Source: Opitutales bacterium
Lineage (GTDB): Bacteria; Verrucomicrobiota; Verrucomicrobiia; Opitutales; JABDGR01
Reading direction: 5' to 3'
Length of the DNA: 62,017 nt
Assembly (NCBI GenBank): GCA_035546135.1
Contig: DASZWY010000136.1
Coordinates: forward strand, 1 to 62,017
Shown: positions 8,053 through 27,583 of the stretch, piece after piece
How positions within the stretch are numbered: the first letter of the stretch is position 1
Layout of the letters: each line of letters starts with the position of its first letter
Program-made: the position numbers and the translations under genes
Notes under the pieces: generated by a model
What the model saw: only the letters and a program-made list of their open reading frames with translations
What the model was told of the DNA's origin: nothing
Databases searched by the model: none

Positions 8053-8514
8053 TTAATTTTTCCCGGTTTTGTCTTCGGCTACACGCTGAAGTGGCTTACC
8101 TAAAATTTTATAAGGAATTTTCCCGGCCGTCATTTCCTCACGGGCAATACGGGCCATGGATTTGAGGGCGCCGGCGAGGTCGGGATGCTTGAGGAGATAT
8201 TCGCGAAGGGTGACGAGGTCCTTGTCCAGGCTGGGGCCGGGAAGCTCGCCAGGGAGAAGCACTTCGACGTCCTCGGCGGAGAACCCCGCGCGGCGAACTT
8301 CGTCGCGGAGGTAGGCCCGGAGAATGTTGATACCGATTTCAGGACGGGGCCATTTGCTGACAAAGGCGCGGAGCAGCTTATCGTTGGGTTGACTGCCGCG
8401 GTTTAGACAATGATGAGCGGTGCGGTAGTTGACGCCTGCGGCCTCTGACCAGGCCCGAAAAGTGGTACCGGTCTCGTTCAAAGCCGCGTGAAATGCGTTC
8501 GCGAAGAGGCTCAT
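8053..8514 (-). CDS. HTH DNA-binding protein, candidate prophage repressor
   Basis: The only convincing minus-strand gene in the element, divergent from the early operon. HTH-like TFRAWSEAAGVNYRTAHHCLNRG. Its position between int and the early genes matches CI-type repressors. Function is inferred. Confidence 0.55.
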   Translation of the reverse strand: MSLFANAFHAALNETGTTFRAWSEAAGVNYRTAHHCLNRGSQPNDKLLRAFVSKWPRPEIGINILRAYLRDEVRRAGFSAEDVEVLLPGELPGPSLDKDLVTLREYLLKHPDLAGALKSMARIAREEMTAGKIPYKILGKPLQRVAEDKTGKN

Positions 8515-8603
8515 ACCCGAGGAACTATGACCATTTTGGTCAATAATGCAAACATATTATTGACATCGTGACAATTTTGAACATATATGTCCCTAAATGT
8601 CAC
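8515..8603. promoter_or_regulatory. divergent promoter/operator (genetic switch) region
   Basis: Perfect palindrome TGACCA-TTT-TGGTCA (8528-8542). Rightward promoter: TTGACA (8560-8565), 17 nt, ATATAT (8583-8588). Leftward promoter: TTGCAT (complement of 8546-8551), 16 nt, CATAGT (complement of 8524-8529), leaving almost no leader before the repressor ATG at 8514. Inverted GTGACA (8568-8573) and TGTCAC (8598-8603). Confidence 0.45.
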
Positions 8604-8806
8604 AGAACAGCGCAATCGCCAGTTCAGTCGAAGAGGTCCGAAATTACATTCTGGACTGCCTCCGCTTTCAGCAGCGCGCGTCCCGTTCGCGCGAGATCCG
8701 CGAAGCGGCCTTCCAATTTGAGGAGATCATCAAGACGGCCAAGGTGGACCCGGCGCAAGAGGTGTTGCCGCTGGGGCGCACGGGCACGGAAGGGAGCTCG
8801 TCGTGA
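8597..8806 (+). CDS. hypothetical protein (first early gene)
   Basis: 69-aa ORF directly downstream of the rightward promoter candidate. No motif recognised. Confidence 0.5.
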   Translation: MSQNSAIASSVEEVRNYILDCLRFQQRASRSREIREAAFQFEEIIKTAKVDPAQEVLPLGRTGTEGSSS

Positions 8807-9057
8807 GCGCGCTGCGACAAATGCCGGCGCGCGTGACACGGTGCCCATTGCGGGTACGGCTGGCGCGCTCGATTACAACGGCCATTCCTTTAAGCGAAAC
8901 GGAGCGCCTTGGACTGGCGTGGTGCGTGGCCGGTGGATTGGCGCTCTTGGGCGCCGGTTTGTTTTTCAGTGACCAGGTGACGGTGATTACAGGCGCGGGG
9001 ATATTGACGGTGGCGGCGTTGTTTGGCCTCGAAACGAGAACGGGAGGCCGGACATGA
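8803..9057 (+). CDS. hypothetical small membrane protein
   Basis: GTG start overlapping the upstream stop (GTGA). Hydrophobic segments LAWCVAGGLALLGAGLFF and ITGAGILTVAALFGL. Confidence 0.5.
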   Translation: MSALRQMPARVTRCPLRVRLARSITTAIPLSETERLGLAWCVAGGLALLGAGLFFSDQVTVITGAGILTVAALFGLETRTGGRT

Positions 9058-9512
9058 ATTTTCCGGCGCACATCCTCACGCAGGCCCAGAAGGGCGCGCG
9101 GCGCGTGGCGCACTGGAAGCGGACGTGCGGCCAGCTCGACGACGTGGGGCTGCTGGAGCAGCTCGAGGCGTGCGCGCCGGAGGAACTGGCGGCCGTCGTC
9201 CTGGAACTGGCGGCGTGCGCGTGCGCGATGCACCGCGACCGCGACCAGCGGCGCGAGAAGCGGGGCGAGGCGAACGTGGTGCTGGGCTGGCTGCGGCGCC
9301 GGCTGAACGACGTGACGACGGCGCGGCGGAATTTTTTGGCGGAACAGCCGGAGGTGCAGGCCGCGAACACGTTTCACCGGCTCGTGCACGCGGAACAGGG
9401 CGGCATGGGCGAATCCCACTTTGACCCGAACGGCGAATTTCCGGCGCCGGTTTCCGCTTTGGACACATCCCCAGGCAGCCCAGACCAATCGGTCGCAGAG
9501 ATTGGTGCTTAA
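9054..9512 (+). CDS. hypothetical protein
   Basis: ATGA-coupled to the upstream ORF. 152 aa. No motif recognised. Confidence 0.5.
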   Translation: MNFPAHILTQAQKGARRVAHWKRTCGQLDDVGLLEQLEACAPEELAAVVLELAACACAMHRDRDQRREKRGEANVVLGWLRRRLNDVTTARRNFLAEQPEVQAANTFHRLVHAEQGGMGESHFDPNGEFPAPVSALDTSPGSPDQSVAEIGA

Positions 9513-9553
9513 CCAAACCAGCCCAGCGCGCACACCCCTTTATTTTTTCTGCC

Positions 9554-9784
9554 ATGCCTCACGCCATCGACGAGCAGCCAGCCGAAGCCACCTGGACCAT
9601 CAGCGAAATCGCGGCGATGTTCAAGAAGGCAACCAAGACGGTTCGCGAATGGAAGGATGCCGGCGAGTTCAGTGAGGAAGGCGGCTACTTCATTCTGCCT
9701 GGCGGCGACTTTGCCATCACCGACAGCGCCCTGCGCGCGTTCATGCGCAAACGGCGCGTGCGAAAAGCCGCAAAGGGGGCGTGA
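9554..9784 (+). CDS. small HTH protein, excisionase/AlpA-like
   Basis: 76 aa. TWTISEIAAMFKKATKTVREWKDAGEF resembles the short HTH of excisionase/MerR-like (HTH_17) proteins. Confidence 0.55.
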   Translation: MPHAIDEQPAEATWTISEIAAMFKKATKTVREWKDAGEFSEEGGYFILPGGDFAITDSALRAFMRKRRVRKAAKGA

Positions 9785-9797
9785 TTTTTTTGCAAAA

Positions 9798-10547
9798 ATG
9801 AACAGCGCGCCGCCATCTTCCAATACCGGGCAAGCCCTGGTCATCACCGCCCCGAACGGGGGTGGCCGTGAGGGGGAATTTTTTATCGGCACCAAGGGCG
9901 AACGCGTGCAGCAATTGACGTTGTTAACGCTAGAGATGGCTAATGAGGTTGAGGCGCTGGAAAAAAGCCGGGCCATCTACACCGCCGACAGGTTATTGAG
10001 CGAGCGTCCCAAGGTTGCCCAATGGTGTCTCACGATGATTGCTGGCGACGTGCCGTGGCGCGTCATCACCGAGCTTACGCACGTCCACCATTACACGCTC
10101 GACGAGCTGGCCCGGCGGTTTCCGGCCGCTGTTGCTGACGAAAGGGCCTCCCTGGGGCGCAGATTTCGACTTGGGGCGCGCATCGCCCTCGAAAGGCTCA
10201 TCGACCGCCTGCCGCACATCCCCATCGAGGAGAGCGCGGACGCGCAACGGATGTCCATTGTGGCCGAAAAGCTGGCGGAAAAGGGGGAGTTACTTTTGGG
10301 CGGAGTGACGCAGCGAACAGAATCTGTCGTGGTCGATGAATGGCGCGAGCTGGCCGCTGTGCTGAAAGAGTTGCCTCGCGCGAATTCAATCGAAGCGCAA
10401 ATCGTCACAGAGACTGGTTCGTGCGGCCAAAAAAGCGCGCCCATTGTGGCGAACGCAGCGGGTCCGGTCCCCAACCTGGGCGGCGACGGTTTGCCGGCAA
10501 ACAAAACCGCGCAGGTGATTGATAATCAACCGGAAATCAATCGTTAA
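9798..10547 (+). CDS. hypothetical protein
   Basis: ATG 9798 (MNSAPPSSNTG) within track ORF 9657..10547. Possible HTH WRVITELTHVHHYTLDELARRF. Function unknown. Confidence 0.5.
   Translation: MNSAPPSSNTGQALVITAPNGGGREGEFFIGTKGERVQQLTLLTLEMANEVEALEKSRAIYTADRLLSERPKVAQWCLTMIAGDVPWRVITELTHVHHYTLDELARRFPAAVADERASLGRRFRLGARIALERLIDRLPHIPIEESADAQRMSIVAEKLAEKGELLLGGVTQRTESVVVDEWRELAAVLKELPRANSIEAQIVTETGSCGQKSAPIVANAAGPVPNLGGDGLPANKTAQVIDNQPEINR
10489..10502. repeat. GTTTGCCGGCAAAC palindrome, perfect copy (read as GLPAN)
   Basis: Read directly from the sequence. Confidence 0.95.
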
Positions 10548-10763
10548 TCATTGAATACCAATGACTTTTATTTACTCAATACGGTTTTTAATACGGTCAC
10601 ACCCCCGAATGCAGGCCGCGTGGCTATACAGGCGTGCAGCATTGTCTCGGTTCCTGGCCGAGGCTCAACAGAGGGGGGGAGGGGGTCGCCAAAACGCGCG
10701 CGGGGGGCGCGAATGCCCACGACCCACCGCCCGAAAAAAATTTACTCAAATGGGAGTCCGGCC

Positions 10764-11294
10764 ATGAACACACCAAACGACATTTCCGAAAAGGACCTCG
10801 CGGCGCTCCTCGGGATGCCGCGCAAAAAGCTGGCCGAGGCACGCACGAAGCTGACCAGCATAACGCACTACCGGCAACAAGGCCGGCTTATCATCTACAC
10901 CCCGGAAGGACAAGCCGCAGTGCAGGCCGCCCTGGTCAAGCCGAGCGAAAACAACACCCCCGCCGCGCCAGCCGACCCCGCCCAGGCGACCCCGCGCGCC
11001 GAAGCCACCGCGCCGCCACGGCTGCTCGTGAAGCCGACCGCAGGGCCGCGCCGCGCACAACTGACCTGCCTACGCACCTTCACCACGAACGAACGAATCC
11101 TCGAAGCCACGGAAGCCGGCAGCGCGACTGTCCTGCGCGTGCGCGTGCGCTCGAACAAGCAATTTCGACCCGGGATGCAATTCAGGGCGGTGCATCTCGA
11201 CGGCACCCTGTGGGCCCTCGACCAGGACTTGCCCCGCAGTCCGCGCGACAACCGTTTTTGGCCGAAAAAAACCACCCCGACGACTTCACCGTGA
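10764..11294 (+). CDS. hypothetical protein, possible N-terminal DNA-binding domain
   Basis: ATG 10764 (MNTPNDISEKDLAALLGMPRKKLAEARTKL) within track ORF 10551..11294. The upstream 216 bp look non-coding (AT-rich repeats). Confidence 0.5.
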   Translation: MNTPNDISEKDLAALLGMPRKKLAEARTKLTSITHYRQQGRLIIYTPEGQAAVQAALVKPSENNTPAAPADPAQATPRAEATAPPRLLVKPTAGPRRAQLTCLRTFTTNERILEATEAGSATVLRVRVRSNKQFRPGMQFRAVHLDGTLWALDQDLPRSPRDNRFWPKKTTPTTSP

Positions 11295-12013
11295 TTCTTA
11301 AAACCAGCTTCCCCAATCACCGCAAAGTTCGCGCCCTGCGCCGCATCACCGGCCGGGACGACAGCGTATTGTGCCTCCTCCGCTTATGGGCGTACGCCGA
11401 AGACAATTTGCGGCTGGAGTTCGACCTGACGCCGGACCAGCTGGAGGACATCTGCGAATGGGAAGGACAGGCCGGGGCGTTTTTCCGGGCGCTGGAACAG
11501 TGCGGCTGGATCGACGTGGATCCCGATGGGCGCTATTGGAGCGTGCATGCCTTCGCCGAGCACAACGGCCGGATGGTCGCCAACTGGACGCGCAACCCCA
11601 ACGGGCGACGCGGAACCCAAGGCGAAGCCAAAGAGAACCCACCCGGAACCCAAGGCGAAGCCACCCTGAACCCAAGGCGAAGCGGTTATATAGGTGATAG
11701 GGGTGATTTAGGAAAGGGATTAGGGGGATTGGGGCCGCAAGGCGGCAAAAAACGCTTTGTTCCCCCGACCCTTCAGGAATGGCGCGCTGAGGCTGTCCTG
11801 GTCGGCTGGAACAGCCCGAGCGACGTTAACGCAGCGTTTCACAGCTTCACCTCGAAGGGCTGGAAGGTCGGGCGTTCGCCGATGGTGAACTGGAAGTCGG
11901 CGGTGTGCACCTGCTTTGAACGTTGGCGCGGGGAAGGTGGGGTTGCGCAAAAAAACAGCCCCCCGACCGCAGAGCCAGGCACCGCCGCCGCCTTCGCCCA
12001 CACCGCGGACTGA
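11291..12013 (+). CDS. replication initiator/organizer-like protein (inferred)
   Basis: GTG start overlapping the upstream stop (GTGA). FPNHRKVRALRRITGRDDSVLCLLRLWAYAEDN and the C-terminal FHSFTSKGWKVGRSPMVNWKSAVCTCFERW resemble phage replisome-organizer/DnaD-like proteins (recalled). Its central linker carries the iteron cluster. Confidence 0.5.
   Translation: MILKTSFPNHRKVRALRRITGRDDSVLCLLRLWAYAEDNLRLEFDLTPDQLEDICEWEGQAGAFFRALEQCGWIDVDPDGRYWSVHAFAEHNGRMVANWTRNPNGRRGTQGEAKENPPGTQGEATLNPRRSGYIGDRGDLGKGLGGLGPQGGKKRFVPPTLQEWRAEAVLVGWNSPSDVNAAFHSFTSKGWKVGRSPMVNWKSAVCTCFERWRGEGGVAQKNSPPTAEPGTAAAFAHTAD
11612..11683. repeat. three in-phase iterons GAACCCAAGGCGAAGC (candidate phage origin)
   Basis: GGAACCCAAGGCGAAGCCA at 11612-11630 and 11645-11663. 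GAACCCAAGGCGAAGC at 11668-11683. The spacings are 33 and 22 bp. A locally AT-rich stretch with GGTGAT repeats follows (11686-11750). Confidence 0.6.
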
Positions 12014-12050
12014 CCGCATTTTTCCCAACCCACCGAACCCAAACAACACC

Positions 12051-13673
12051 ATGACCACCGCTACCCAGTCAGCCCCGCCCGCCGAGAATGCCAGCCGTTT
12101 GCCGGCAAACGCGGCGAAAAAAAGTCCGCCCCCCGCGCCGCAACTGCGGCAGATCCCGCTCGACTGCATCAAGCGGTCGCGCCTGAACCCGCGCAAGGAC
12201 TTCGACAAGGCCGCGCTCCAGGAGCTGGCCGACAGCATCCAGGCCAACGGCGTGTTGCAGCCCATCGTCGTGCGGCGCACCGAGAAGGGCGCGGAGTTCT
12301 ACGAAATCGTCATGGGCGAGCGCCGCCACCGCGCGGCGGAACTGGCCGGGCTGAAGGCGCTGCCGGCGGTGGTGCACGAGGAACTGGCCGACGCGGCCGC
12401 GCTGGAGATGGCGCTGGTGGAAAACTTGCAGCGGCGCGACATGAACGCGATGGAGGAGGCTGAAGGCTTCGCGCGCCTGCAAGAACTCATGGCGAAGGAG
12501 AGCGGCAAGAAGGTGACGCACGACGATTTGGCGGAACGCGTCGGCAAGGCCAGGCCCACGGTGACGAATGCCCTGCGCCTGACCGAATTGTCCGAGGACG
12601 TGCGCGAAACCATCCGCACCGGCAAATTGACCGCGGCGCACGGCCTGGCCTTGTTGAAGTTCAACGCGTGGCCCAAAGTGGTTCAGCTCATTGCCAAACT
12701 CATTTTGACGGAGCACGTCACCGCGGGCCAACTGGAAAAAAATCTGCCTTACGACGTGCGCCGGGCGCTGGACCAGTCGAGGCTGCTATTTGACTGCAAC
12801 GGTTACGAATTCGAAGACCATGACTGGGTAGCCGCGCAAAAGAAAAATCCGGAGAAATTCATTTCGCTGGGCGACACGCTCTATTGCGCCGACGTTCCGT
12901 GGGGCAAACAGCAGATGGCGGAGGCGGAAAAGGCGCGCGCGGCCGCCGCAAAAGCCGCGGCGGAAAAACTCGGTAAGGAAACAGGCAAAAAGGGGAAAGT
13001 CCTCGACCTAGACAAGCTTGAATATGCCGACCGGAAAAAGTGGACCGCTTTGTCGGAGGTGCCCGGCAATTTGCGCGGAGAAATTCCCGTGGAGGTCAAA
13101 TGCGCGGCGACCGAACAATACACCAATAGCGGGAAACCGTTTACGGTCATTCCAACCGGTCTAGCCAATACATTAAAGGCAAAGGCCAATCGCGCCAAAA
13201 CCGGCAAGTTGCGGGCGGAGTCCCAGGTCGTTTTTGCCTGCATTGAAAAGACCTGGGGCGCGACAACGATTTTCGATGGCGCTGCCGCGCTGAAGGACAG
13301 CGCCCTGGTGGTCATGGCGCATGAAATCCTCGGACGCTACTCCGGCAAAATGATCGAAACGGCGGCGGGTGAACTCGGCTTGACGGTCGAACGCGCCGTG
13401 ACAAGCGCGGGCTATGCCTCGGGTGCATACGGCGGCGAAAACAAAGTCCTCGATGCGTTGATGAAACTGGGCGGCCGCAACGCGGTTCGCCTGGCACTAC
13501 GGGTCGTGTTCAACAAGGAAGTCAGCAACGCGCTGGCCTACAAACATGAAAAAATGCCCGCGCGCGTGGAATGGTTCACGGCGAAGGCCGGCGCGGCGCG
13601 CTACCGCAAGGAAGCGGAAAAGCAAGTAAGCGACATCCTCGATTCCGCCAAGAAAGGGGCGAAGAAAAAATGA
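12051..13673 (+). CDS. ParB-family (ParB/Noc/KorB-like) DNA-binding protein, orphan (no ParA)
   Basis: Box I LQELADSIQANGVLQPIVV. Box II EIVMGERRHRAAELAG (GERRxRA CTP-binding motif). HTH THDDLAERVGKARPTVTNALRLTEL. ATG 12051. The ~340-aa C-terminal extension has no motifs I recognise. Confidence 0.85.
   Translation: MTTATQSAPPAENASRLPANAAKKSPPPAPQLRQIPLDCIKRSRLNPRKDFDKAALQELADSIQANGVLQPIVVRRTEKGAEFYEIVMGERRHRAAELAGLKALPAVVHEELADAAALEMALVENLQRRDMNAMEEAEGFARLQELMAKESGKKVTHDDLAERVGKARPTVTNALRLTELSEDVRETIRTGKLTAAHGLALLKFNAWPKVVQLIAKLILTEHVTAGQLEKNLPYDVRRALDQSRLLFDCNGYEFEDHDWVAAQKKNPEKFISLGDTLYCADVPWGKQQMAEAEKARAAAAKAAAEKLGKETGKKGKVLDLDKLEYADRKKWTALSEVPGNLRGEIPVEVKCAATEQYTNSGKPFTVIPTGLANTLKAKANRAKTGKLRAESQVVFACIEKTWGATTIFDGAAALKDSALVVMAHEILGRYSGKMIETAAGELGLTVERAVTSAGYASGAYGGENKVLDALMKLGGRNAVRLALRVVFNKEVSNALAYKHEKMPARVEWFTAKAGAARYRKEAEKQVSDILDSAKKGAKKK
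12097..12110. repeat. GTTTGCCGGCAAAC palindrome, perfect copy (codons 16-20 of the ParB-like gene, RLPAN)
   Basis: Read directly from the sequence. Confidence 0.95.
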
Positions 13674-14047
13674 ACGGCCTGGCCAAACAGTTGAAGCTGC
13701 AGCGGCTGCGCCTGATGGACCCGGCGCGGGCGGTGGAACGCGTCACCGAGTTGCAGGACGGCGTGGCGGAATTGGAAATGCTGGCCGCCCTGGCGAAGAA
13801 GGCGAACAAGCGCATGGCGGCGATGCTGCGGGCGCGGCGCGTGGCCGCGGGCATCAGCGAGTCGCAGTTCTGCCAGGTGTTGGGCCTGACGCGCGAGCAG
13901 CTCCACGCGCTGGAATTTGGCGCGGAGGCATGGACGCCGAGCGCGGCGCGAATGTACGCGCAGGCCTGCGAGGCCAACTACCGCCCGAAAATCCGCAAAA
14001 CGCCGGAGGCCGCGCCGGCCCCGGCCATCCAGGAGGGCGCAGCATGA
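13670..14047 (+). CDS. XRE-like HTH protein
   Basis: ATGA overlap with the ParB-like stop. ISESQFCQVLGLTREQLHALEFG is an XRE-type HTH. Confidence 0.55.
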   Translation: MNGLAKQLKLQRLRLMDPARAVERVTELQDGVAELEMLAALAKKANKRMAAMLRARRVAAGISESQFCQVLGLTREQLHALEFGAEAWTPSAARMYAQACEANYRPKIRKTPEAAPAPAIQEGAA

Positions 14048-14205
14048 ATCCCCTGAGAGAATGCAGCACAGGCGCAATGATAGTATTATTGCCCTATCAC
14101 GAGAGCGTAAACTCGAGCGTAAGCCTTTACGGGCTACCTAGGCGGCCGGCACGCAGCACAGAAGGCAAAACGCAGGCGCGTACTACTGCATTCTCTCAGG
14201 GGATT
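14047..14205. repeat. 159-bp element bounded by a perfect 20-bp inverted repeat
   Basis: AATCCCCTGAGAGAATGCAG (14047-14066) is the exact reverse complement of CTGCATTCTCTCAGGGGATT (14186-14205). The 119-nt interior is AT-richer, with small internal hairpins and a duplicated GCAGCACAG. It fills the largest non-coding gap of the replication module. Confidence 0.7.
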
Positions 14206-14228
14206 TGTGAGCAAGAAAGGAGCCGCGC

Positions 14229-14636
14229 ATGAAAGGCCTTTCCGTCAGACAGCCCTGGGCGACGTTGATTCTGCGCGCCGGGAAAGATATCGAAAACCGC
14301 ACGTGGCCAACGAGGGCGCGGGGTTGGGTGCTGTTGCACGCGTTCCAGGACGCCGGTGATTTCATGGCCATGCACTGTCTTTCATGGTGCGGACTCGCGC
14401 CAGTTGAATTTCCGAAAGGCGCGATTCTGGGCGCAATGAAGATTGACGGCTGCGTTACTGAGTCGAAGTCGCCGTGGTTTGTCGGCCCCTATGGCTACAT
14501 CATCGCCGAGACGCGTATTTTTGCCAAGCCGATCCCCTATACCGGCGCACTTGGCTTTTTCAACGTCGAGCTTTCGCCCGAACTCGGCGTCCAGATTCAA
14601 CTCGCCAATCTTCACAACATCAGGTGGGCCGCATGA
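14229..14636 (+). CDS. ASCH (PUA-like) domain protein
   Basis: LSVRQPWATLILRAGKDIENRTW is the N-terminal ASCH signature. AAGGAG Shine-Dalgarno at 14217-14222. Confidence 0.75.
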   Translation: MKGLSVRQPWATLILRAGKDIENRTWPTRARGWVLLHAFQDAGDFMAMHCLSWCGLAPVEFPKGAILGAMKIDGCVTESKSPWFVGPYGYIIAETRIFAKPIPYTGALGFFNVELSPELGVQIQLANLHNIRWAA

Positions 14637-14848
14637 AAACGAAAAAGCGCAAACGGATTTGCTCTGCCTGCGGCGTCAAGGAAGCCCAGGGGAAAGGCTT
14701 TGCCTACGCGCATTTGTGCCTGAGGTGCCGCAACACCGAGGAGGAGCTGGACGGCCAGCGGCGCGAACACTTCGTGCCCAAAGACGACTTTTCGGCCACC
14801 GGCTGTTACCACACCAAAAAATTTCAACTCCAGGAGGATGCTCGGTGA
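14633..14848 (+). CDS. small zinc-ribbon protein
   Basis: ATGA overlap with the ASCH stop. Two CxxC pairs (CSAC and CLRC). 71 aa. Confidence 0.5.
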   Translation: MKTKKRKRICSACGVKEAQGKGFAYAHLCLRCRNTEEELDGQRREHFVPKDDFSATGCYHTKKFQLQEDAR

Positions 14849-15096
14849 AAAATCCACGACTGGCCGAATTCTACCGACAGCTCCGCGCGCGCGGGGAAAC
14901 GACGGCGACGCTCGCGGCCAAAATCGGCCGCAGCCGGGTGCACCTGACGCACATTTTCAACGGCAGCAAGCGCGGGCGCTTCACGTGGCAGGTGCTGTAT
15001 CCGTTGCTCACCGAAAAAGAGTTGTCCCTTTTATTACAATGTTCCGCGTGGAACGGCACAGACGGCAAACCGCTTGCGCAAAAGGCCACACGATGA
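14845..15096 (+). CDS. small HTH protein
   Basis: GTGA overlap with the upstream stop. AGGAGGA lies 7 nt upstream. HTH-like TTATLAAKIGRSRVHLTHIFNG. The competing frame (ATG 14838) gives Arg-rich low-complexity sequence. Confidence 0.5.
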   Translation: MKNPRLAEFYRQLRARGETTATLAAKIGRSRVHLTHIFNGSKRGRFTWQVLYPLLTEKELSLLLQCSAWNGTDGKPLAQKATR

Positions 15097-17225
15097 TTTA
15101 CGACGCCAAAGAGGTCAACCGCCGGCTCGCGCAGGAAATTGCGCGGTTCTGTTTTGAATTTCTAAGTTCTGGGCGCCGGGAAGGGCGGCAATGGAAGGTG
15201 TGCGACGTGAGCAATTCACCGCAGCCGGGCAAGGGCAACGATTCATTGGTCATTGACCTGGAAGGCGGCAAGCAAGGCGTGTGGTGCGATTTCGGCAACA
15301 ACAACCAGACGGGCAGCCCGCTCGACCTGTGGATGGCCGTGCGCGGCTGCGATTTCAAAACGGCACTCCGGCAAGCGAAAGACTGGCTGGGCCTGAAGGA
15401 AACCGGCGACGCGCCCGGCGAATTTCACCGCGCCACGGCGCGGCCAACTGAGACCCCGGCGAGCGAGCCCAAGGCCATCCGCGAAGACTGGGCACCCATT
15501 AAAGAGGGCAGCCGCGCATGGAAATACCTCACAGAAGTGCGCGGGATTGCCGGTGCGGTGCTGAAAAAATACCGCGTCGGCGAGGGCGATTTCTGGTTCG
15601 GTGAGGTCAATGCCAGCGTGCCCGGCATCGCCTTTCCGGCCTACGATGCGAGCGGCAAACGGCTGCTGATGGTCAAGTACCTCGCGCTGGACCGGCCAGC
15701 CGGCAAAAAGATGACGCGGTCGAACAAGGACGCGGTGTACCACCTCATTGGCATGCACGCGTGCAACCCGAGCAAGGGCAAGCTGGTGCTGTGCGAAGGC
15801 GAGATCGACATGCTGACCGCCGCGACGGCGGGCTACGAAGCGGTGAGCGTGCCGTTTGGCGCGAAAGGCAACAGCCCGGATGGGCGCACCAACCGCGGCA
15901 ATGCGTGGATTGAGGTCGATTGGGACTGGCTCCAGCTTTGGAACGACATTCTGCTGGCCTACGACAACGACGAGCAGGGCCACGAGGCCGTGGCGGCCGT
16001 CAAAACGCGGCTGGGCGTGGACCGCTGCCTGTTCCTGGACTGGAGGGAAGTGGACGGCAAGGACCTCAACGAAGTGCATACCCGCAGCGAGGACGAACAC
16101 CTCGAACAGGGCAGCGATGTTAAAAAACTGCTGGAACGCGCCCGCGCCGAAGACCCGGAAGCGTTCAAGCGCACGCGCGATTATGAGGCGGATATTTGGG
16201 AGGAATTTTACCCGAGCAGCGGCCAGGAGCCGGGTTATGCGCCGCCGTGGGCGATGCCCTTCCGCTTCCGGCCCAACCAGGTGACGGTCTGGACCGGCTA
16301 CAGCAAGCACGGCAAGACCATTTGCCTCAGCTACGTGCTCGTTTACCTCGGCAGCCTGGGCGCGCGCGCGTGCATCTACAGCGGCGAAGTCAAGGCGCGG
16401 AAGACGCTCAAAAACGCCATGCGGCAAGTGATGGGCCGCGCCAAGCCGCAAAAACCAACGGCAGACGGCCAGGGCTTTGAACCCGACCGCGAACTGTTCG
16501 AGCGCGCGATAGCGTGGATGGACAACGTGTTTTTCATCTACGACCGCCTCGGCAGCGTGAAGCTCGATGACGTGCTCGCCGTATTCGGCTACGCCGCGCG
16601 GCGCTACGGCGTCACCCAGTTCGCCATCGACAGCCTGATGAAGCTGGACGACGTCCACGAGGACGACAACGACAGCCAGAAAATCGTCATGAACAAGCTG
16701 ACGGATTTTGCGGCGCGGTTTCCCGGCGCGCACGTCCACCTGGTGGCGCATTCGAAAAAGCCCGGCGAAAAGCGGCCGGAGACCCGGTATTGGCCGCAAA
16801 AGCACGACGTGCTCGGCAGCGTCCACATCACCAACCTGCCGCACAACGTGGTTTGCGTGTACCGCAACGTGAACAAGGAGATGCAGCTCGAACTCCCCAC
16901 CACGACCGAGGAGGAGCGCGAGGCCATTGCGAAACAATACGACGCGCTTTTCATCGTGCAGGCCCAGCGCGAAGGCGAGGGCGACCTGCCCATCCGGCAG
17001 CTGTGGTTCGATGTCGGCGCGAGCTGGCAGTATTTCGAGCGCGACGGCGAAAACCCGCGGGTCTTCTGCGACGGCGGCCAATTCCTGCCCGGCGCCGGCG
17101 CAAACCTCGCGCGCGCGGCGCTGGCCGCGCCGCCGCCGAAAGTGCACGGCCCCGCGAGCGCGCAGGCCGTGCTCGGCGGATTGGATGAGGCCGCGAAGAA
17201 AACCCCACGAACCTTCCAGCATTAA
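15093..17225 (+). CDS. bifunctional DNA primase (TOPRIM) / DnaB-like replicative helicase
   Basis: TOPRIM motifs LVLCEGEIDMLTA and LLAYDNDEQG. Helicase Walker A GYSKHGKT and Walker B FAIDSLMKLDD. Architecture is T7 gp4-like. ATG 15093 overlaps the upstream stop. Confidence 0.85.
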   Translation: MIYDAKEVNRRLAQEIARFCFEFLSSGRREGRQWKVCDVSNSPQPGKGNDSLVIDLEGGKQGVWCDFGNNNQTGSPLDLWMAVRGCDFKTALRQAKDWLGLKETGDAPGEFHRATARPTETPASEPKAIREDWAPIKEGSRAWKYLTEVRGIAGAVLKKYRVGEGDFWFGEVNASVPGIAFPAYDASGKRLLMVKYLALDRPAGKKMTRSNKDAVYHLIGMHACNPSKGKLVLCEGEIDMLTAATAGYEAVSVPFGAKGNSPDGRTNRGNAWIEVDWDWLQLWNDILLAYDNDEQGHEAVAAVKTRLGVDRCLFLDWREVDGKDLNEVHTRSEDEHLEQGSDVKKLLERARAEDPEAFKRTRDYEADIWEEFYPSSGQEPGYAPPWAMPFRFRPNQVTVWTGYSKHGKTICLSYVLVYLGSLGARACIYSGEVKARKTLKNAMRQVMGRAKPQKPTADGQGFEPDRELFERAIAWMDNVFFIYDRLGSVKLDDVLAVFGYAARRYGVTQFAIDSLMKLDDVHEDDNDSQKIVMNKLTDFAARFPGAHVHLVAHSKKPGEKRPETRYWPQKHDVLGSVHITNLPHNVVCVYRNVNKEMQLELPTTTEEEREAIAKQYDALFIVQAQREGEGDLPIRQLWFDVGASWQYFERDGENPRVFCDGGQFLPGAGANLARAALAAPPPKVHGPASAQAVLGGLDEAAKKTPRTFQH

Positions 17226-17252
17226 CCGTCCTGAGGACACAACCCAAACACC

Positions 17253-17564
17253 ATGAAAATCATCACCGCCGGCCACAAATACGAACTCGCCAATCTCGCG
17301 AGCGACACCACGCAAACGCTGCAATTCGTCGAGAAGCAACCCATTCCGGGCGACCCGTCCGGAAAATTGCAGACCGTCACGGACGGCACCACCAACGAGG
17401 AGGTGCTGCAAGTGCTGATTGACCGCATGAAATTCCTGCAAGGCAAAGTGGCCTGCCCGGAAAACGCCAAGGCCATCGGCGCGCTGGAGCAGGCGCTCTT
17501 GTGGCTGCGCAACCGCACCGCCCATCGGCAGGCGCGCAGCGTCGAAGGCACCAGCCGCGCCTAA
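17253..17564 (+). CDS. hypothetical protein (conserved-looking small phage protein)
   Basis: 103 aa. TTNEEVLQVLIDRMKFLQ and ALEQALLWLRNRTAHRQARSVEGT look like a recurrent phage family whose name I cannot recall. Confidence 0.6.
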   Translation: MKIITAGHKYELANLASDTTQTLQFVEKQPIPGDPSGKLQTVTDGTTNEEVLQVLIDRMKFLQGKVACPENAKAIGALEQALLWLRNRTAHRQARSVEGTSRA

Positions 17565-17583
17565 CTTTCAACCATTGCCCCCC

Positions 17584-18225
17584 ATGATACGTTTGCCGGC
17601 AAACCTAGTCGTCATTGACTGCGAAACGACCGGGCTGGACGCGGCCTGGCACGGCATCGTGTCCATCGGCGCGGTGGCACTCGATGGCAGCGAATTCCAC
17701 CAGGAATGCCAGCCAGGCGGCGAAGTAACCGACGTCGATGCGGAGGCCCTGGCCGTGTGCGGCATCGCCGACTTGCAGGCGCTCTACAGCCGGGAAATGG
17801 CCGCGGGGCCGGCGGTCTTGAAACTGTGCGAATGGCTGCGCGGCCTGCCGCGCGCCGGCCTGGCGCGCAAGGACAAGTTCATCCAGGGCGGCAAAAACCC
17901 GCACTTCGACCGCGAGTTCCTCGTGCGCGAATTGTCGCGCTGGCGGCGGGGGCAGACGCCGGAGGATTTCAAAGAGGAGCAGACGCTAGCCGGCCTGCGC
18001 AAATGGGCGGAAAACTGGCTGCCGCTGTCGCGCCGCCCGTTAAACGTGCATGACTGGGCTGTCGTGTGGGCGCTCCGGCGGGGCATCGCGGTGGACGCGC
18101 CCGGCTTTTCGGTGGCGCAGGTTTACCGGCAGCTGGGCTTTGCCGAGGAAGCGAAGCCGCACCACGCGCTGACGGGCGCGAAGCTGGCCCTGGAGAAATT
18201 CAAAAAACTCGCGGAGGAACTGTGA
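17584..18225 (+). CDS. DnaQ-like 3'-5' exonuclease
   Basis: Exo I LVVIDCETTGLD, Exo II GKNPHFDREFL, and a degenerate Exo III region PHHALTGAKLA. ATG 17584 is preferred to the TTG at 17575. Confidence 0.7.
   Translation: MIRLPANLVVIDCETTGLDAAWHGIVSIGAVALDGSEFHQECQPGGEVTDVDAEALAVCGIADLQALYSREMAAGPAVLKLCEWLRGLPRAGLARKDKFIQGGKNPHFDREFLVRELSRWRRGQTPEDFKEEQTLAGLRKWAENWLPLSRRPLNVHDWAVVWALRRGIAVDAPGFSVAQVYRQLGFAEEAKPHHALTGAKLALEKFKKLAEEL
17591..17604. repeat. GTTTGCCGGCAAAC palindrome, perfect copy (codons 3-7 of the exonuclease, RLPAN)
   Basis: Read directly from the sequence. Confidence 0.95.
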
Positions 18226-18578: not shown

Positions 18579-20552
18579 ATGGACACTGTTGCTCAAACGC
18601 CTGTCACGCCCGCCGAAGGGCCGCCCCCGGAAGCGGCGGAAATGCTGCCGCCGTGGGTGGCGCGGCTGCAGGCGCAGTTTCCGGGGCAGCAGATTGTCAA
18701 CCCGGAGCGGCCAAACCATCCGCTGCTACCGTTTCCGGACGCGCTCGCGGCGAAGCTCATCCATGAAGGCGGCCTGGACAGGTTCAACGACTACTCGATG
18801 CGGCGCAACAGGCGGCTGCGGCTGGAGAGGGTGAATCCGCTGGAGTATGGCTTCGAGTGCGTGAGCTGGAAACTGGCGGACGTGCTGTGGGGCTGGATAA
18901 CGTGGGACCAATTCTGCGCCGACCCGGACGTGCCCGACCGGTGGAAAACGGAAGCGTGCAAACAGCTCGCGGCGGAGCGGCGCAACCTCATCCTGGTGCT
19001 GGGCGGCTGGCGCGCGAGCAAGACCGAATACATGATCAAGCGCGCGGTGCAGTGCGCGCTGAAGTATCCGGAGGCGCGAATCTGGCTGTTGCACGAGAAC
19101 CAGGCGCAATCCGTGCAATATCATCACCGCGGCGTGTACAAATATCTGCCCGCAGACCAGCGCGACCTGGGACGCGGCAAGGTGGAATACGTGGCCTTCA
19201 CCTGGAAAAATGGCTTCACGGCAAACAACCTGGTGCTCCGGAACAAATCCACCATCGAGTTCAAAACCTACGAACAGTATGCGGCGAAGGACACGGCCTT
19301 CGAGGGCGCGGAACTCGGGGACAATGAGCGGCGCCCCTGCCTGGGCGCGCTGGCGGACGAACTCATCCCGTTCAACGCCTGGGATGCGTTGCGCGCGCGC
19401 CTCACCACTCGCAGCGCAACCGGCCTCACCGGCTTCTACCCGAAGCACGGCTACAATGAAACCGTGGCGGCCTTTCTCCAGGGCGCAACGCTGTTGCTCT
19501 CAGAGCCGGTGGACGGAGTCATCGCCAAAAAAGGCGACCGCGTGGACGACGTGGTGATAAGCGAGGAGCGAGTGGTTGAGAGCGACCTGCTGCTGCGCGG
19601 AGGCGACAGCCGCCGCGCCATCGTGCATTTTTTCTCCAAGTTCAATCCTTTCGGCAATTACCCGCAGTTGCTGGTAAATTTTGCCGGCGAATCGCTGGAG
19701 GGCAAGCTGGCGACCTTGGCGGGGCGCGCGTTCAAAACCATCAAGGCGCAATTTCCGAAGTTTAAAGACAGCATCCACCTGGCGGACCCCGGCGCCATCC
19801 CGCTGCATGGCACCAACTGGCTCATCATCGACCCGGCCGGAACCAAAAACTGGTTCATGCTGTGGATCCGGGTGGACCTGTACAAACGCTTCTGGGTCTA
19901 CCGCGAATGGCCATGCAAAAAAATCCATATTCCCGGCATCGGCTATCCGGAGCCGTGGGCGATCCCCGGCGCGGAGGGCGGCATGCTCGGCGGCGGCGCG
20001 CGCAGCTTTGGCTTCACGCTCGCCAACTACAAAAATGAAATCGCACGGCTGGAAGGCTGGGGAGACTTTGTGGAAGGCAAGCTCGCTATGGATGACTGGG
20101 ACGACCTGAACGGGGCCGCCGAACGCGTGCGCGCCCGCATCCTCGACCACCGGTATTGCGAGACGACGCAACAGAACTCGAAGGGCAACACCAACCTGCT
20201 GATGGAGCTGCTGAAACTGAAAGTGCGCGCCATTCCAGGGCCGGCGATGAATATCGACCCGGGCGTGCAGCTCATCAATGACCGCCTCGGCTACACCGAC
20301 AAATGGCTGATGGCCGCGCCAAAGGACCGGCTGGTAAATGAGGGGCCGAAATTGTTCATTTCGCGCGACTGCGAAAACCTGATTTTCGCGCTGAAGACAT
20401 GGACGCGCGTGGGCGGCGCGGACGAGCCCACCAAAGACCCCATCGACGCGCTCCGCTATGCGTGCCAGCACCAAATTTTCTACGCCGAGGAGCCGGACGC
20501 GAGCACGGCGGCCCGCGCCCACGGCTACGGACTGCCAAGGAGGGCAACCTAA
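18579..20552 (+). CDS. terL: terminase large subunit
   Basis: Walker A-like GGWRASKTE, Walker B LGALADELIP, nuclease-like WLIIDPAGTKNWFMLWIRVD. 657 aa, just upstream of the portal-size gene. Confidence 0.75.
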   Translation: MDTVAQTPVTPAEGPPPEAAEMLPPWVARLQAQFPGQQIVNPERPNHPLLPFPDALAAKLIHEGGLDRFNDYSMRRNRRLRLERVNPLEYGFECVSWKLADVLWGWITWDQFCADPDVPDRWKTEACKQLAAERRNLILVLGGWRASKTEYMIKRAVQCALKYPEARIWLLHENQAQSVQYHHRGVYKYLPADQRDLGRGKVEYVAFTWKNGFTANNLVLRNKSTIEFKTYEQYAAKDTAFEGAELGDNERRPCLGALADELIPFNAWDALRARLTTRSATGLTGFYPKHGYNETVAAFLQGATLLLSEPVDGVIAKKGDRVDDVVISEERVVESDLLLRGGDSRRAIVHFFSKFNPFGNYPQLLVNFAGESLEGKLATLAGRAFKTIKAQFPKFKDSIHLADPGAIPLHGTNWLIIDPAGTKNWFMLWIRVDLYKRFWVYREWPCKKIHIPGIGYPEPWAIPGAEGGMLGGGARSFGFTLANYKNEIARLEGWGDFVEGKLAMDDWDDLNGAAERVRARILDHRYCETTQQNSKGNTNLLMELLKLKVRAIPGPAMNIDPGVQLINDRLGYTDKWLMAAPKDRLVNEGPKLFISRDCENLIFALKTWTRVGGADEPTKDPIDALRYACQHQIFYAEEPDASTAARAHGYGLPRRAT

Positions 20553-20767
20553 TGCCGGGGAAGCCCAATACGACATTTGCGGCGCGCGGCACTATCATCG
20601 AGTGGGTGACCAGCGAAGGCGTGAGCGAGTTCGTGGCGAATAAAGCGCTGTCGAACAACAAAATCCCCTACGAAACTTTTGGCGCCAAAAAAAAATTTTT
20701 CTACGTCGACGCCGCCGAGCAATTCTTTTTCCCCGCCGCCGCCAAATCCACCACCAAACAAACATGA
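20552..20767 (+). CDS. hypothetical small protein
   Basis: Its ATG overlaps the terL stop (TAATG), and its stop overlaps the portal ATG (ATGA). 71 aa. Confidence 0.5.
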   Translation: MPGKPNTTFAARGTIIEWVTSEGVSEFVANKALSNNKIPYETFGAKKKFFYVDAAEQFFFPAAAKSTTKQT

Positions 20768-23076
20768 GCGACCTCAATCTAGCCATCAACACCGGCGAGG
20801 ATGCCGGCAACACCGCGCCGGAAATTCGCGCGGAAAACAATCCGTCCGCGCCCACGGCCACAGCTGACGGGATGCCCACGGTCAAAATGGTGCAGCGGCT
20901 CGCACGCGAGCTGCAAGACGCCATCGGCCAGGCCGGGGAATGGTACCGCGACATGAAATTGTCCGACGACCGGCGCTGGTGCATTTGGTTCGGGCAAACG
21001 GATTCCGGCGTGAAGGAAATGGTGGAGGGCGTGACGGAGCCCGAGCCGTGGGAGGGCGCGAGTGACACCCGCATCCGCCTGGTGGACGAAAAGGTCCGCG
21101 AGGCCGACCGGAAATGCGCCGCGGCTTTTGACCGGGGCCGGTGGAAGCTCGGCGGATTTCGCGACCAATCGGCGCGGCTCGCGGGCAAAACAACCCAGTT
21201 GTTGAAATGGATGTGGTACAGCCAAATGGAAGAGGAGGCGGACCGTGAAGCGAAACTCGCGCGGGACTGGCGCAACTCCTATGGGCTGGCCTTTACCTTT
21301 GTGGAATGGCACCGGCAGGAAGCATTGGAAGCCGTCCAGCTCGACGCCCACAAACTCGCGGAAATGATTGGCTTGAGCCACGTCACCGCCGCCGCCCAGG
21401 GTGACGTGCCCGGCTGGATTCAGAAGACGGAAATGGCGGCGAGCGCGCCGCAGCCCGCCGCGCAAACCCCGACACAGCTACAGCAGCAGCAACAAACGGT
21501 CGCGTTGCTTCGCCAGGTGAAGGATGCGTGGGACCTGCTGAACAACCCGGCGCGCGAGGACGAATTTGTCGAGCAGCTGCAAAAAGCCTTTCCGGAGGCA
21601 ACGCCCAAACGGCTGAAGCAGGCCGCGCGCGACCTGCGGAAAGACGGCAAAGCCACCCTGCCGCAGCCCATCACGCTTGAAAACCGCCCCCGCATCCGCG
21701 CGCTCAAACCATTCATTCACGCATTTTTCCCGACCGCGACCACCAACGTCATGAACGCGGAATGGTTCGCCGTCCGCGAATGGCTGACGGAAACGCAACT
21801 GGAGGAAAAGGCGAACCAGGGCTGGGACCCGAAATTCATCGAGGCGGCAAAAGGCACCAAGGGCAAGCCGACATCCACGCCCGCCATCGAGGAGAAGGGC
21901 CTGACCACGCTGGACACCAAGGACATGATCGAGGTGTTCCATTTCTTTCACCGCGAATGCGACGAAGACGGCGTTCCGGGCCTCTATCGCACCACCATTT
22001 CGCTGCATTTGCAGGGCAGCAACCAGCCGGAGGAAGCGGCGTTGTTTGCGCAGCACGAACTCTATGGCGCGGCGCGGATGAAAATGCCCTTTGTGGCGCA
22101 CGAATTTTTCACCGAGAGCGAGCGGCTGATTGACCAGCGCGGCATTCCCTACCTCATCCACACCTACCAGAACGAGAAGAAAAACGCGCGGGACATGCGC
22201 ATCGACCTGTCCACCATTTCCATTCTGCCGCAAGCCATCCGGCATGTTTCCGACCTGGACCGGGGCGCCAAAGTAAAGCCAAACACGCCGATTTACGAAA
22301 GCGTGGTCGGCTCCTTCCGCTGGGCCGAGCCACCGCACGGCCGCGCCGACCTCGGCATGGAAACCGAGGCGGCGGTGGACCGCGACGTGAACCGCCTACT
22401 GGGCTCGCCCGATGCGAACATCCCGGCGCCGCTCATCCAGTTGCACGACGACGTCCTGACCGGCGACTACACGAAGGAAATGGCGCGGGTGCTCTCGCGG
22501 ATGCTGGAGCTGATGCAGCAATACCTGGAGCCGGTGACGGTGACGCGCGTGACGGGCGAATTTCCCCAGGCGTTCCCGATGTCGGCGGACGAAATCCGCG
22601 GCGACTTCGACCTGCGCCTGATTTTCGACGCGCGCGAACTCGACTCGGACTTCGTCATGAAGAAGTTCGACATGCTCGGCAAAATCGCGGCCTACGACAA
22701 GACCGGCATCCTCGACTACAACCAAATCATCACGGCGATGCTGAACAATCTGGACCCCAGCTGGGCCGACGAGTTCATCCGCAGCAGCGACACGGCAACC
22801 AAGCAGGAAATCAAGGCGGCGATGGACGCCATCGGCTACGTGATGACCGGCCAGCAGCCGGAACTGCTCGACTCGCGCACGCCGGGCGTGAACTGGCAAC
22901 TGCGGCTTAACACGCTGCTGGGCGCAATCCAGAAAAGCCCGGTCATCCAGCAGGCCATCCGCGAAAATCCGGTCATCGCCAAACTGTTCCAGACGCTCCA
23001 GCAAAACTACGAGCAGGGCGTGGCCCAGGCGAACAACGCGCAAATCGGCCGGACGGGCGCGGCCCCGGCACTGTAA
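20764..23076 (+). CDS. portal protein (by size and position)
   Basis: 770-aa gene translationally coupled downstream of the terminase. No motif recognised by eye. Confidence 0.6.
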   Translation: MSDLNLAINTGEDAGNTAPEIRAENNPSAPTATADGMPTVKMVQRLARELQDAIGQAGEWYRDMKLSDDRRWCIWFGQTDSGVKEMVEGVTEPEPWEGASDTRIRLVDEKVREADRKCAAAFDRGRWKLGGFRDQSARLAGKTTQLLKWMWYSQMEEEADREAKLARDWRNSYGLAFTFVEWHRQEALEAVQLDAHKLAEMIGLSHVTAAAQGDVPGWIQKTEMAASAPQPAAQTPTQLQQQQQTVALLRQVKDAWDLLNNPAREDEFVEQLQKAFPEATPKRLKQAARDLRKDGKATLPQPITLENRPRIRALKPFIHAFFPTATTNVMNAEWFAVREWLTETQLEEKANQGWDPKFIEAAKGTKGKPTSTPAIEEKGLTTLDTKDMIEVFHFFHRECDEDGVPGLYRTTISLHLQGSNQPEEAALFAQHELYGAARMKMPFVAHEFFTESERLIDQRGIPYLIHTYQNEKKNARDMRIDLSTISILPQAIRHVSDLDRGAKVKPNTPIYESVVGSFRWAEPPHGRADLGMETEAAVDRDVNRLLGSPDANIPAPLIQLHDDVLTGDYTKEMARVLSRMLELMQQYLEPVTVTRVTGEFPQAFPMSADEIRGDFDLRLIFDARELDSDFVMKKFDMLGKIAAYDKTGILDYNQIITAMLNNLDPSWADEFIRSSDTATKQEIKAAMDAIGYVMTGQQPELLDSRTPGVNWQLRLNTLLGAIQKSPVIQQAIRENPVIAKLFQTLQQNYEQGVAQANNAQIGRTGAAPAL

Positions 23077-23909: not shown

Positions 23910-24116
23910 ATGAGCAAGCAAAACAACTCTGGCTATGGCTATGGCGATGGCTCTGGCTATGGCGATGGCTATGGCTATGGCTATGGCGATGGCTCTGGCG
24001 ATGGCTCTGGCTATGGCGATGGCTCTGGCGATGGCTCTGGCTATGGCGATGGCTCTGGCGATGGCTCTGGCTATGGCGATGGCTCTGGCGATGGCTCTGG
24101 CTATGGCTATGGCTAA
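23910..24116 (+). CDS. Gly/Tyr/Asp/Ser repeat micro-protein (GYGDGSGDGS)n
   Basis: ATG 23910 (MSKQNNSGYGYGDGSGYG...). 68 aa, almost entirely G/Y/D/S. Coding status is uncertain because all frames stay open across the tandem repeat. Confidence 0.45.
   Translation: MSKQNNSGYGYGDGSGYGDGYGYGYGDGSGDGSGYGDGSGDGSGYGDGSGDGSGYGDGSGDGSGYGYG
23979..24098. repeat. four perfect 30-bp tandem repeats
   Basis: The unit GGCTATGGCGATGGCTCTGGCGATGGCTCT starts at 23979, 24009, 24039 and 24069. Degenerate GGCTATGGC/GATGGCTCT units flank it from ~23931 to 24113. Confidence 0.95.
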
Positions 24117-27495: not shown

Positions 27496-27583
27496 AATCG
27501 TGTCAAATGAAATTTTTCCCGCAGGGGGCGCCGGCGCAAACCGTTGATGCTGGTGAAAAATTGAAAATATCAAAAATCGAGTG

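Follow-up and report, generated by a model that had tools for sequence, protein, structure and literature searches.

In bacteriophage λ, the origin ori-λ lies inside gene O, where its iterons adjoin a 40-bp A+T-rich region (PMC5043065). In bacteriophage SPP1, the origin oriL lies inside gene 38 and comprises direct repeats together with a DNA unwinding element that is AT-rich, bound by gp38 (PMC6316719). Plasmid iterons are direct, helically phased repeats that are bound by monomers of a winged-helix initiator, and disturbance of their phasing inactivates the origin (PMC5043065). Here we describe an array of 11-nt direct repeats, followed by a purine-rich tract, that lies at 11613–11740 of a 62,017-nt contig from an Opitutales bacterium (DASZWY010000136.1; this whole stretch of DNA was analysed and is referred to as the window), within a prophage gene for an initiator-like protein. 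We consider it probable, with a likelihood of roughly two in three, that 11613–11740 is the replication origin of the prophage, arranged in the style of λ and SPP1 inside the linker-coding part of its own initiator gene. The features concerned are as follows.

11291..12013, + strand: initiator-like or replisome-organizer-like gene of 240 amino acids (aa), with a GTG start that overlaps the upstream stop codon (GTGA)
11613..11689, + strand: array of seven 11-nt units, GAA(C/G)CC plus 5 nt, all in one orientation; proposed initiator-binding iterons
11613..11628, + strand: exact 16-mer, copy 1, translated G-T-Q-G-E-A
11646..11661, + strand: exact 16-mer, copy 2, translated G-T-Q-G-E-A
11668..11683, + strand: exact 16-mer, copy 3, translated L-N-P-R-R-S, its frame shifted by +1 from that of the other two copies
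11684..11740, + strand: purine-rich, AT-richer tract with ~9-nt repeats (GGTGATAGG, GGTGATTTA, GGGATTAGG, GGGATTGGG); proposed unwinding element

Like ori-λ, this locus presents multiple candidate sites in the interdomain linker of an initiator gene, beside an A+T-richer tract, and as in λ the N-terminal domain (N-domain) of the protein would be expected to bind DNA and the C-terminal domain (C-domain) to recruit the helicase system. Like λ O, moreover, the gene stands just ahead of a helicase or loader gene in most relatives: among 32 family loci, the next gene encodes a DnaB-like helicase in 16, an IstB/DnaC-like ATPase in two, a λ-P-like protein in one and a Toprim-bearing protein in two. 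An earlier note on this DNA had likened the repeats to λ ori, a comparison that holds for the layout in the linker of an initiator gene and fails for the units themselves. In particular, λ has four 19-bp iterons of inverted symmetry that bind O dimers, whereas the window has seven polar 11-nt direct units and a tract that is purine-rich and only moderately AT-rich.

As in SPP1 oriL, direct repeats and an AT-richer tract lie inside an organizer gene, which in SPP1 is followed by the genes for a helicase loader and a DnaB-type helicase (PMC6316719). G38P of SPP1 is a replisome organizer, and the window protein shows fold matches to viral 'replisome organizer' models and a C-domain that is common to PF09681-bearing proteins. 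Unlike SPP1, however, its N-domain lacks a PF09681 match, the sequence and period of the repeats differ, and only a single array is found in the contigs searched here, whereas SPP1 has a second origin copy, oriR. With the iteron origins of theta plasmids (P1, F, R6K, pSC101 and RK2) the locus shares phased direct repeats beside an A+T-richer region, and the 22-nt super-repeat of the window, GAACCCAAGGCGAAGCCAnnnn, has the iteron length typical of these plasmids; plasmid iterons, unlike the array, usually fall in non-coding DNA next to the rep gene and not within it. The geometry of the array is closer to that of plasmid iterons than to that of λ iterons. An origin inside an initiator gene is a known kind of element, and what is special here is the 11-nt period running through three reading frames, together with how large the gene's uncharacterised family is.

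Results

Seven 11-nt units span the linker codons in more than one frame

An exact-match search of the 62-kb window found precisely three copies of the 16-mer GAACCCAAGGCGAAGC, at 11613, 11646 and 11668, with the spacings of 33 and 22 nt that the earlier note had given. The first two copies do extend further, as had been claimed, and the extension yields a 20-mer (CGGAACCCAAGGCGAAGCCA, at 11611 and 11644) rather than a 19-mer. When read in an 11-nt register, the region resolves into the unit order GAACCCAAGGC / GAAGCCAAAGA / GAACCCACCCG / GAACCCAAGGC / GAAGCCACCCT / GAACCCAAGGC / GAAGCGGTTAT. Four of these units, at 11613, 11635, 11646 and 11668, carry (G)AACCCA, which proved to be the core of the family; those at 11624 and 11657 alternate with them and have GAAGCCA instead, and the unit at 11679 reads GAAGCGG. 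The units are polar, are not palindromic and fall one to each helical turn. The pattern GAASCC-N5-GAASC has six overlapping zero-mismatch matches in the array and none elsewhere in the window, and the corresponding three-unit pattern has no further zero-mismatch match in the 2.9-Mb assembly. Within the early or replication module (8400–17300) the array is the only substantial local family of direct repeats, the other being a 15-nt pair present in two copies. The exact 16-mer also has 17 single matches in IMG/VR, which form no cluster and look like chance. Each full unit contains GGCGAAGCC or GCGAAGC (11621–11629, 11654–11662 and 11677–11683), a possible match to the very stable d(GCGAAGC) mini-hairpin motif reported at some replication origins; this lead was considered and set aside.

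The seven units code for residues ~108–133, inside a linker (residues 105–155) that is modelled with low confidence between two confident domains. Their four GAACCCA cores are split two and two between reading frames: copies 1 and 2 of the 16-mer encode G-T-Q-G-E-A, the half copy at 11635 is translated E-N-P-P, and copy 3 reads L-N-P-R-R-S. The repeated GTQGEA linker between two domains that had been described is therefore a linker indeed, with two copies of that peptide, and does not extend to the third DNA copy. Because the translation of the repeat changes while its letters stay perfect, the repeat is a feature of the DNA and not of the peptide.

The array is kept as DNA across a large family of phage proteins

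An exhaustive profile-free search returned 2162 representative proteins at E ≤ 0.001 (after clustering at 50%), 141 of them at E ≤ 1e-10. Most members have a common N-domain (MIVxPDFxDHWKT ... RLWAHCQ ... NWxNGxKGGRPK) joined to varied C-domains. The N-domain had no match in 50,697 GenBank phage records, and no family member occurred in 72,556 plasmids (PLSDB), so that no cultured or characterised member was found. No close relative of the window protein turned up in IMG/VR in scans with the protein or with a subfamily alignment, and a metagenome scan for such relatives returned only distant C-domain loci. For the comparisons below, 80 IMG/VR loci together with prophage loci from the same phylum were clustered at 70% identity, giving 34 representatives.

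At least two copies of AACCCA occur in the linker of 28 of these 34 non-redundant members, and at least two copies of ACCCA in 31; AACCCA is enriched 68-fold in linkers over 164 kb of flanking DNA. In nearly every member the array comes directly after the N-domain, and the cores of the window, at −5, +17, +28 and +50 from the end of the N-domain model, are in line with those of the other members. Adjacent cores (n = 87 spacings) are most often 11 nt apart (51), with 22 nt (13) and 12 nt (9) following, and 142 of 204 pairwise core distances are multiples of 11. Consistent with this, the mean resultant length is 0.91 at a period of 11, compared with 0.56 at 10 and 0.65 at 12. The cores are distributed over the three codon phases (37/49/33), two or three frames being used by 30 of the 34 members, and they share a polarity, with 119 ACCCA against 17 TGGGT in family linkers. 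Phased clusters number 22 in linkers and two elsewhere (207 kb, both strands), and each of the five phage contigs searched, three of which are at least 99% complete, contains a single array. Core, phasing and position are all kept across proteins that are just 22–30% identical to the window protein. Together with the synonymous-site constraint described below, these findings show that the layout of array and tract is kept as DNA across a large family of phage proteins, in a gene place like that of λ O.

Since 11 cannot be divided evenly by three, consecutive units fall into three different frames, and an 11-residue pseudo-repeat, NPxxTHGxPxx, arises as a by-product: AAC-CCA gives N-P, ACC-CAy gives T-H or T-Q, and xxA-CCC-Axx gives x-P-x. 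For the same reason, units can be gained or lost without a frameshift only three at a time, that is, in steps of 33 nt. An insertion of exactly 33 nt (three units) separates one cluster of family loci from its close relatives.

Where ACCCA is lacking, family members show different cores that keep to the 11–12-nt register. A more distant N-domain variant (L107) has three 11-nt repeats at the linker place, and two loci with distant N-domains of the HDWxxHCP type (L109 and L110) carry in-frame copies of GCTAAGC at 12-nt intervals, which encode peptide repeats of AKLE/AKLQ or AKxx. In a prophage of a genome from the same order (L002:1889–2015), whose N-domain homologue is 33% identical, 22-mers stand 35 nt apart in different frames and are followed by three exact 15-mers (GTGTGATGAGGTGAG) and then by an AT-richer stretch. 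A further locus (L003) combines the same C-domain as the window protein with an unrelated, winged-helix-like N-domain; the linker of this gene (1063–1992) contains 2.5 exact tandem copies of a 21-nt sequence (CGATCAGACAAATTGTCCGAA) at 1401–1453, which looks like another candidate for an origin within a gene.

Synonymous changes are rare in the array

We compared codons for the same residue within three clusters of related loci (L065, L023 and L041) and recorded the fraction that differed; the clusters are drawn from family loci outside the window's own lineage, and, as the sequences within each cluster are related, bootstrap intervals for these values exaggerate their independence. In the stretch made up of the array and the start of the tract, the synonymous difference was 0.055 in the first cluster, 0.055 in the second and 0.072 in the third, compared with 0.216, 0.396 and 0.335, respectively, in the rest of the gene. 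Synonymous changes are accordingly four to seven times rarer in the array stretch in all three clusters, and no other stretch of that length in the genes falls so low; the trough lines up with the array plus the tract's first half. The stronger sign of constraint is that each of the three separate clusters shows this trough. Codon usage in the linkers likewise leans towards the codons from which the core is built (CCA, 0.38 versus 0.18; ACC, 0.64 versus 0.47; AAC, 0.78 versus 0.60).

These observations bear on two alternatives to an origin. The first is that the array is a neutral coding minisatellite, produced by replication slippage in a disordered linker that tolerates it. The exactness of the copies does suggest that they were duplicated recently, disorder is predicted for the linker, and its length differs in P0002, the sole close relative (75% identical to the window protein). 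However, the copies lie in different frames, and core, phasing and position persist at the low protein identities given above. Together, the different frames, the phasing across the family and the rarity of synonymous change contradict neutral slippage, to which we give hardly any credence.

The second alternative is that the repeats act in mRNA, for example by offering a translational regulator an array of binding sites or by forming a structure that controls expression of the downstream replication genes. Synonymous constraint and a strict single orientation would fit an RNA element equally well. Nevertheless, the 11-nt period corresponds to the B-DNA pitch, while for RNA it would have no obvious meaning; a search of Rfam gave no match, and the array is tied to an N-domain of DNA-binding type and to the context of a replication gene. 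We regard an action in mRNA as very improbable.

A purine-rich tract adjoins the array

The tract at 11684–11740 has a G+C content (GC) of 0.48–0.50, compared with about 0.63 around it (0.48 for 11684–11735), and its top strand is 71% purine. The mini-repeats that had been reported are present in a 9-nt register, GGTGAT at 11693 and 11702 and GGGATT at 11716 and 11725. The description of the stretch as locally AT-rich is borne out in relative terms only: the tract is the GC minimum of the initiator gene and not of the prophage, in which GC drops far lower at 10534, at 27556 and in other places. In P0002 the peptide encoded by the tract, SGYIGDRGDLGKGLG, is nearly unchanged and is the best-conserved part of the linker.

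Across the family, tracts exceed their surroundings in both purine (means of 0.71 versus 0.54) and AT (0.55 versus 0.44), with 29 of 31 members above background for purine and 30 of 31 for AT. The usual form is ACCGATAGAGAAGATAGAGAAGA (GATAGAGAA-type), which has a 9- or 5-nt period and encodes TDREDRED; the tract of the window, GGTGATAGGGGTGATTTAGG...GGGATTAGGGGGATTGGGG, seems to be a version of it with shifted GC. DnaA-trios were considered for the purine tract and set aside, as the triplet pattern did not fit. By eye only, a piece of the family tract, GATAGAGAAGAT, resembles a 12-nt purine module, TACAGAGAnTAC.

The initiator-like protein is predicted to have two domains joined by a disordered linker

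The start codon of 11291–12013 agrees with the family N-terminus, MIVxPDF. PHROG 9474, annotated 'replication initiation protein', matches residues 7–115 (1.4e-8), and phrog_15768, which is unnamed, matches residues 153–216. A Pfam scan of the 240-aa protein (E ≤ 0.1) gave a sub-threshold JetA hit only, with no match to PF09681, DUF4373 or Phage_rep_O, and we therefore do not place the protein in the λ O family (Phage_rep_O); it has no NCBIfam match either.

In a model that AlphaFold2 produced from 34 family sequences, the predicted local distance difference test score is above 90 for residues 1–100, below 60 for residues 105–155 and about 90 for residues 156–215, delimiting an N-domain (residues 1–~104), a disordered linker (~105–155) and a helical C-domain (~156–215). 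The modelled N-domain consists of helices and a β hairpin at 74–85 and looks like a winged helix. The top fold matches of the model in the PDB, none of them significant, are mostly winged-helix DNA binders (MarR, ArsR, a Rep-DNA complex and TubR), and no PDB sequence was matched in a profile search. Among the predicted viral structures of BFVD, fold matches with E values from 1.8e-6 to 1e-3 and low TM-scores are named 'Replisome organizer', DUF4373, DnaD-domain and 'Replication initiator'. The C-domain contains a module, RFxPPT...SKGWKVG..PM..WK, that is 42–49% identical to proteins bearing PF09681 and PF19808 (P0003–P0007), and it also aligns with genes from Vibrio and Porphyromonas phages that are annotated DUF4373 or 'replication initiation protein'.

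The array lies in the early block of a prophage integrated at tRNA-Asn

The window contains a 43-kb prophage, with a perfect 40-nt repeat at its two ends (6175 and 49407; att repeats) that is the 5′ part of a tRNA-Asn gene; the prophage is integrated at tRNA-Asn. A gene for GTP-dependent phosphoenolpyruvate carboxykinase that flanks the prophage is 85–93% identical to homologues from metagenome-assembled genomes of Opitutales and Verrucomicrobiota, which places the host among the uncultured Opitutales (Verrucomicrobiota). The early or replication block has the order 10764–11294, the initiator gene, a ParB-like gene, a helix-turn-helix (HTH) gene, an ASCH gene and a primase-helicase gene, of which the following provide context.

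10764..11294, + strand: gene without assigned function, translationally coupled to the initiator gene
12051..13673, + strand: gene for a ParB-like protein (ParB_N and HTH_ParB), by Pfam and PHROG matches
about 15093..17225, + strand: gene for a primase-helicase (Toprim and AAA_25; phrog_239, 'DNA primase/helicase'; T7-gp4-like), start codon inferred

An open reading frame (ORF) of L002 occupies the place that matches 10764..11294 and is similar by eye only, as are the upstream genes of L002. The ParB-like protein has a long C-terminal extension of ~300 residues that matches no Pfam family.

The ParB-like gene begins 38 nt past the initiator gene, which raises the possibility that the array is a partition (centromere-like) site for the adjoining ParB-like protein, or a site resembling the ParR/parC and TubR/tubC arrays. 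Type II and type III centromeres typically have tandem direct repeats of 11–12 bp, and TubR is one of the weak fold matches of the initiator-like protein. On the other hand, a ParB-like protein is the downstream neighbour in just one of the 32 family loci, that of the window, the units are not palindromic as parS is, no actin-like or tubulin-like partner is found among the downstream neighbours, and the element integrates at tRNA-Asn. A role in partition strikes us as exceedingly improbable.

Two non-coding segments lie near the replication genes. The stretch 10520–10600, within or near the 216-nt gap (10548–10763) that precedes the gene at 10764, has a GC of 0.28 and is the most AT-rich DNA near the replication genes; AATACGGT is repeated 12 nt apart within 10541–10600. 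This last spot could be a promoter or operator, an Int arm site or a rival origin position. The segment 14047–14205, between the HTH and ASCH genes, is closed by a perfect 20-bp inverted repeat and contains no direct-repeat cluster.

In a further alternative, the array may be read as a genuine site for the gene's own protein that serves in autoregulation, copy control or titration, or as a roadblock, the true origin lying elsewhere, for example at 10548–10763 or 14047–14205. The low GC and short repeats of the former stretch and the inverted repeat that closes the latter speak for such an arrangement, as does the phage's T7-gp4-like primase-helicase; plasmids, moreover, use extra iteron arrays for control (PMC5043065). 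Yet neither 10548–10763 nor 14047–14205 has an iteron-like direct-repeat cluster or family-level support. Furthermore, the array in the family is always paired with a purine/AT tract, stands alone in each phage contig searched, and travels with the N-domain whatever the C-domain or the neighbouring genes. We think an origin elsewhere unlikely.

Further along the prophage, a gene for a DnaQ/RNase T-like exonuclease is present at 17575–18222, downstream of the primase-helicase gene; ORF scans at 17–30 kb found little else, with the proviso that the choice of ORFs may be imperfect. The ORFs at 18579–20549 and 20764–23073 have no Pfam or PHROG match, and ORF calls in this GC-rich DNA may be imperfect. 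A long tandem array of up to 15 copies, with a period of 12/18/30 nt, occupies 23930–24115 of the window, in a small ORF rich in Gly/Tyr/Asp/Ser.

Discussion

The earlier note proposed that this stretch is the phage replication origin, bound by the product of 11291–12013. Our sequence comparisons support that proposal and point to an origin-type DNA element in the linker of the initiator-like gene: the repeats run through different frames, arrays are present in 31 of 34 family members, synonymous change is constrained, there is one array per contig, and the gene occupies a position like that of λ O. Several observations weigh against assigning origin function to 11613–11740. Synonymous constraint alone is compatible with a function at the level of either DNA or RNA. 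The tract, at ~48–50% GC, is by no means the least stable stretch of prophage DNA, and the non-coding gap at 10548–10763 is much more AT-rich. The gene that follows the initiator gene in the window is ParB-like and does not encode a helicase. No fold match to a solved structure reaches significance (best E 0.06), so that a DNA-binding fold is only suggested, and in P0002 the segment that encodes the array has diverged and is longer.

If 11613–11740 is the origin, N-domain monomers (residues 1–~104) would line up next to one another on a single helical face, each bound to a unit, and the resulting nucleoprotein complex would strain and open the adjoining tract. The C-domain, a module of replisome organizers of the PF09681/DUF4373 type, would then recruit a helicase, probably the phage primase-helicase (15093–17225) or host DnaB.

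A more general proposal, for which we see the case as evenly balanced, is that this family of phage initiators, known only from uncultured phages and counting 2162 representatives, writes its origin as an array of 11-nt units, one per helical turn, across the three frames of its own linker. In that event NPxxTHGxPxx would be a mere shadow of the DNA, the length of the array would change only in 33-nt steps, and the purine tract of the GATAGAGAA type would be a separate and widely shared module for opening the origin.

To our knowledge, no replication system of a Verrucomicrobiota phage has been studied. If the origin assignment is true, it would supply a rule for finding origins in thousands of uncultured phages and prophages, those of Verrucomicrobiota included, namely an ACCCA-type array in 11-nt steps together with a purine tract, immediately behind the 'NWxNGxKGGRPK' that ends the N-domain. 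It would also be a natural case of dual coding, in which a DNA-binding array whose period is indivisible by three imposes an 11-residue repeat on the peptide and restricts changes in the length of the gene. Finally, the initiator gene with its internal origin would form a compact cassette, a possible replicon for genetic tools in Opitutales and their relatives.

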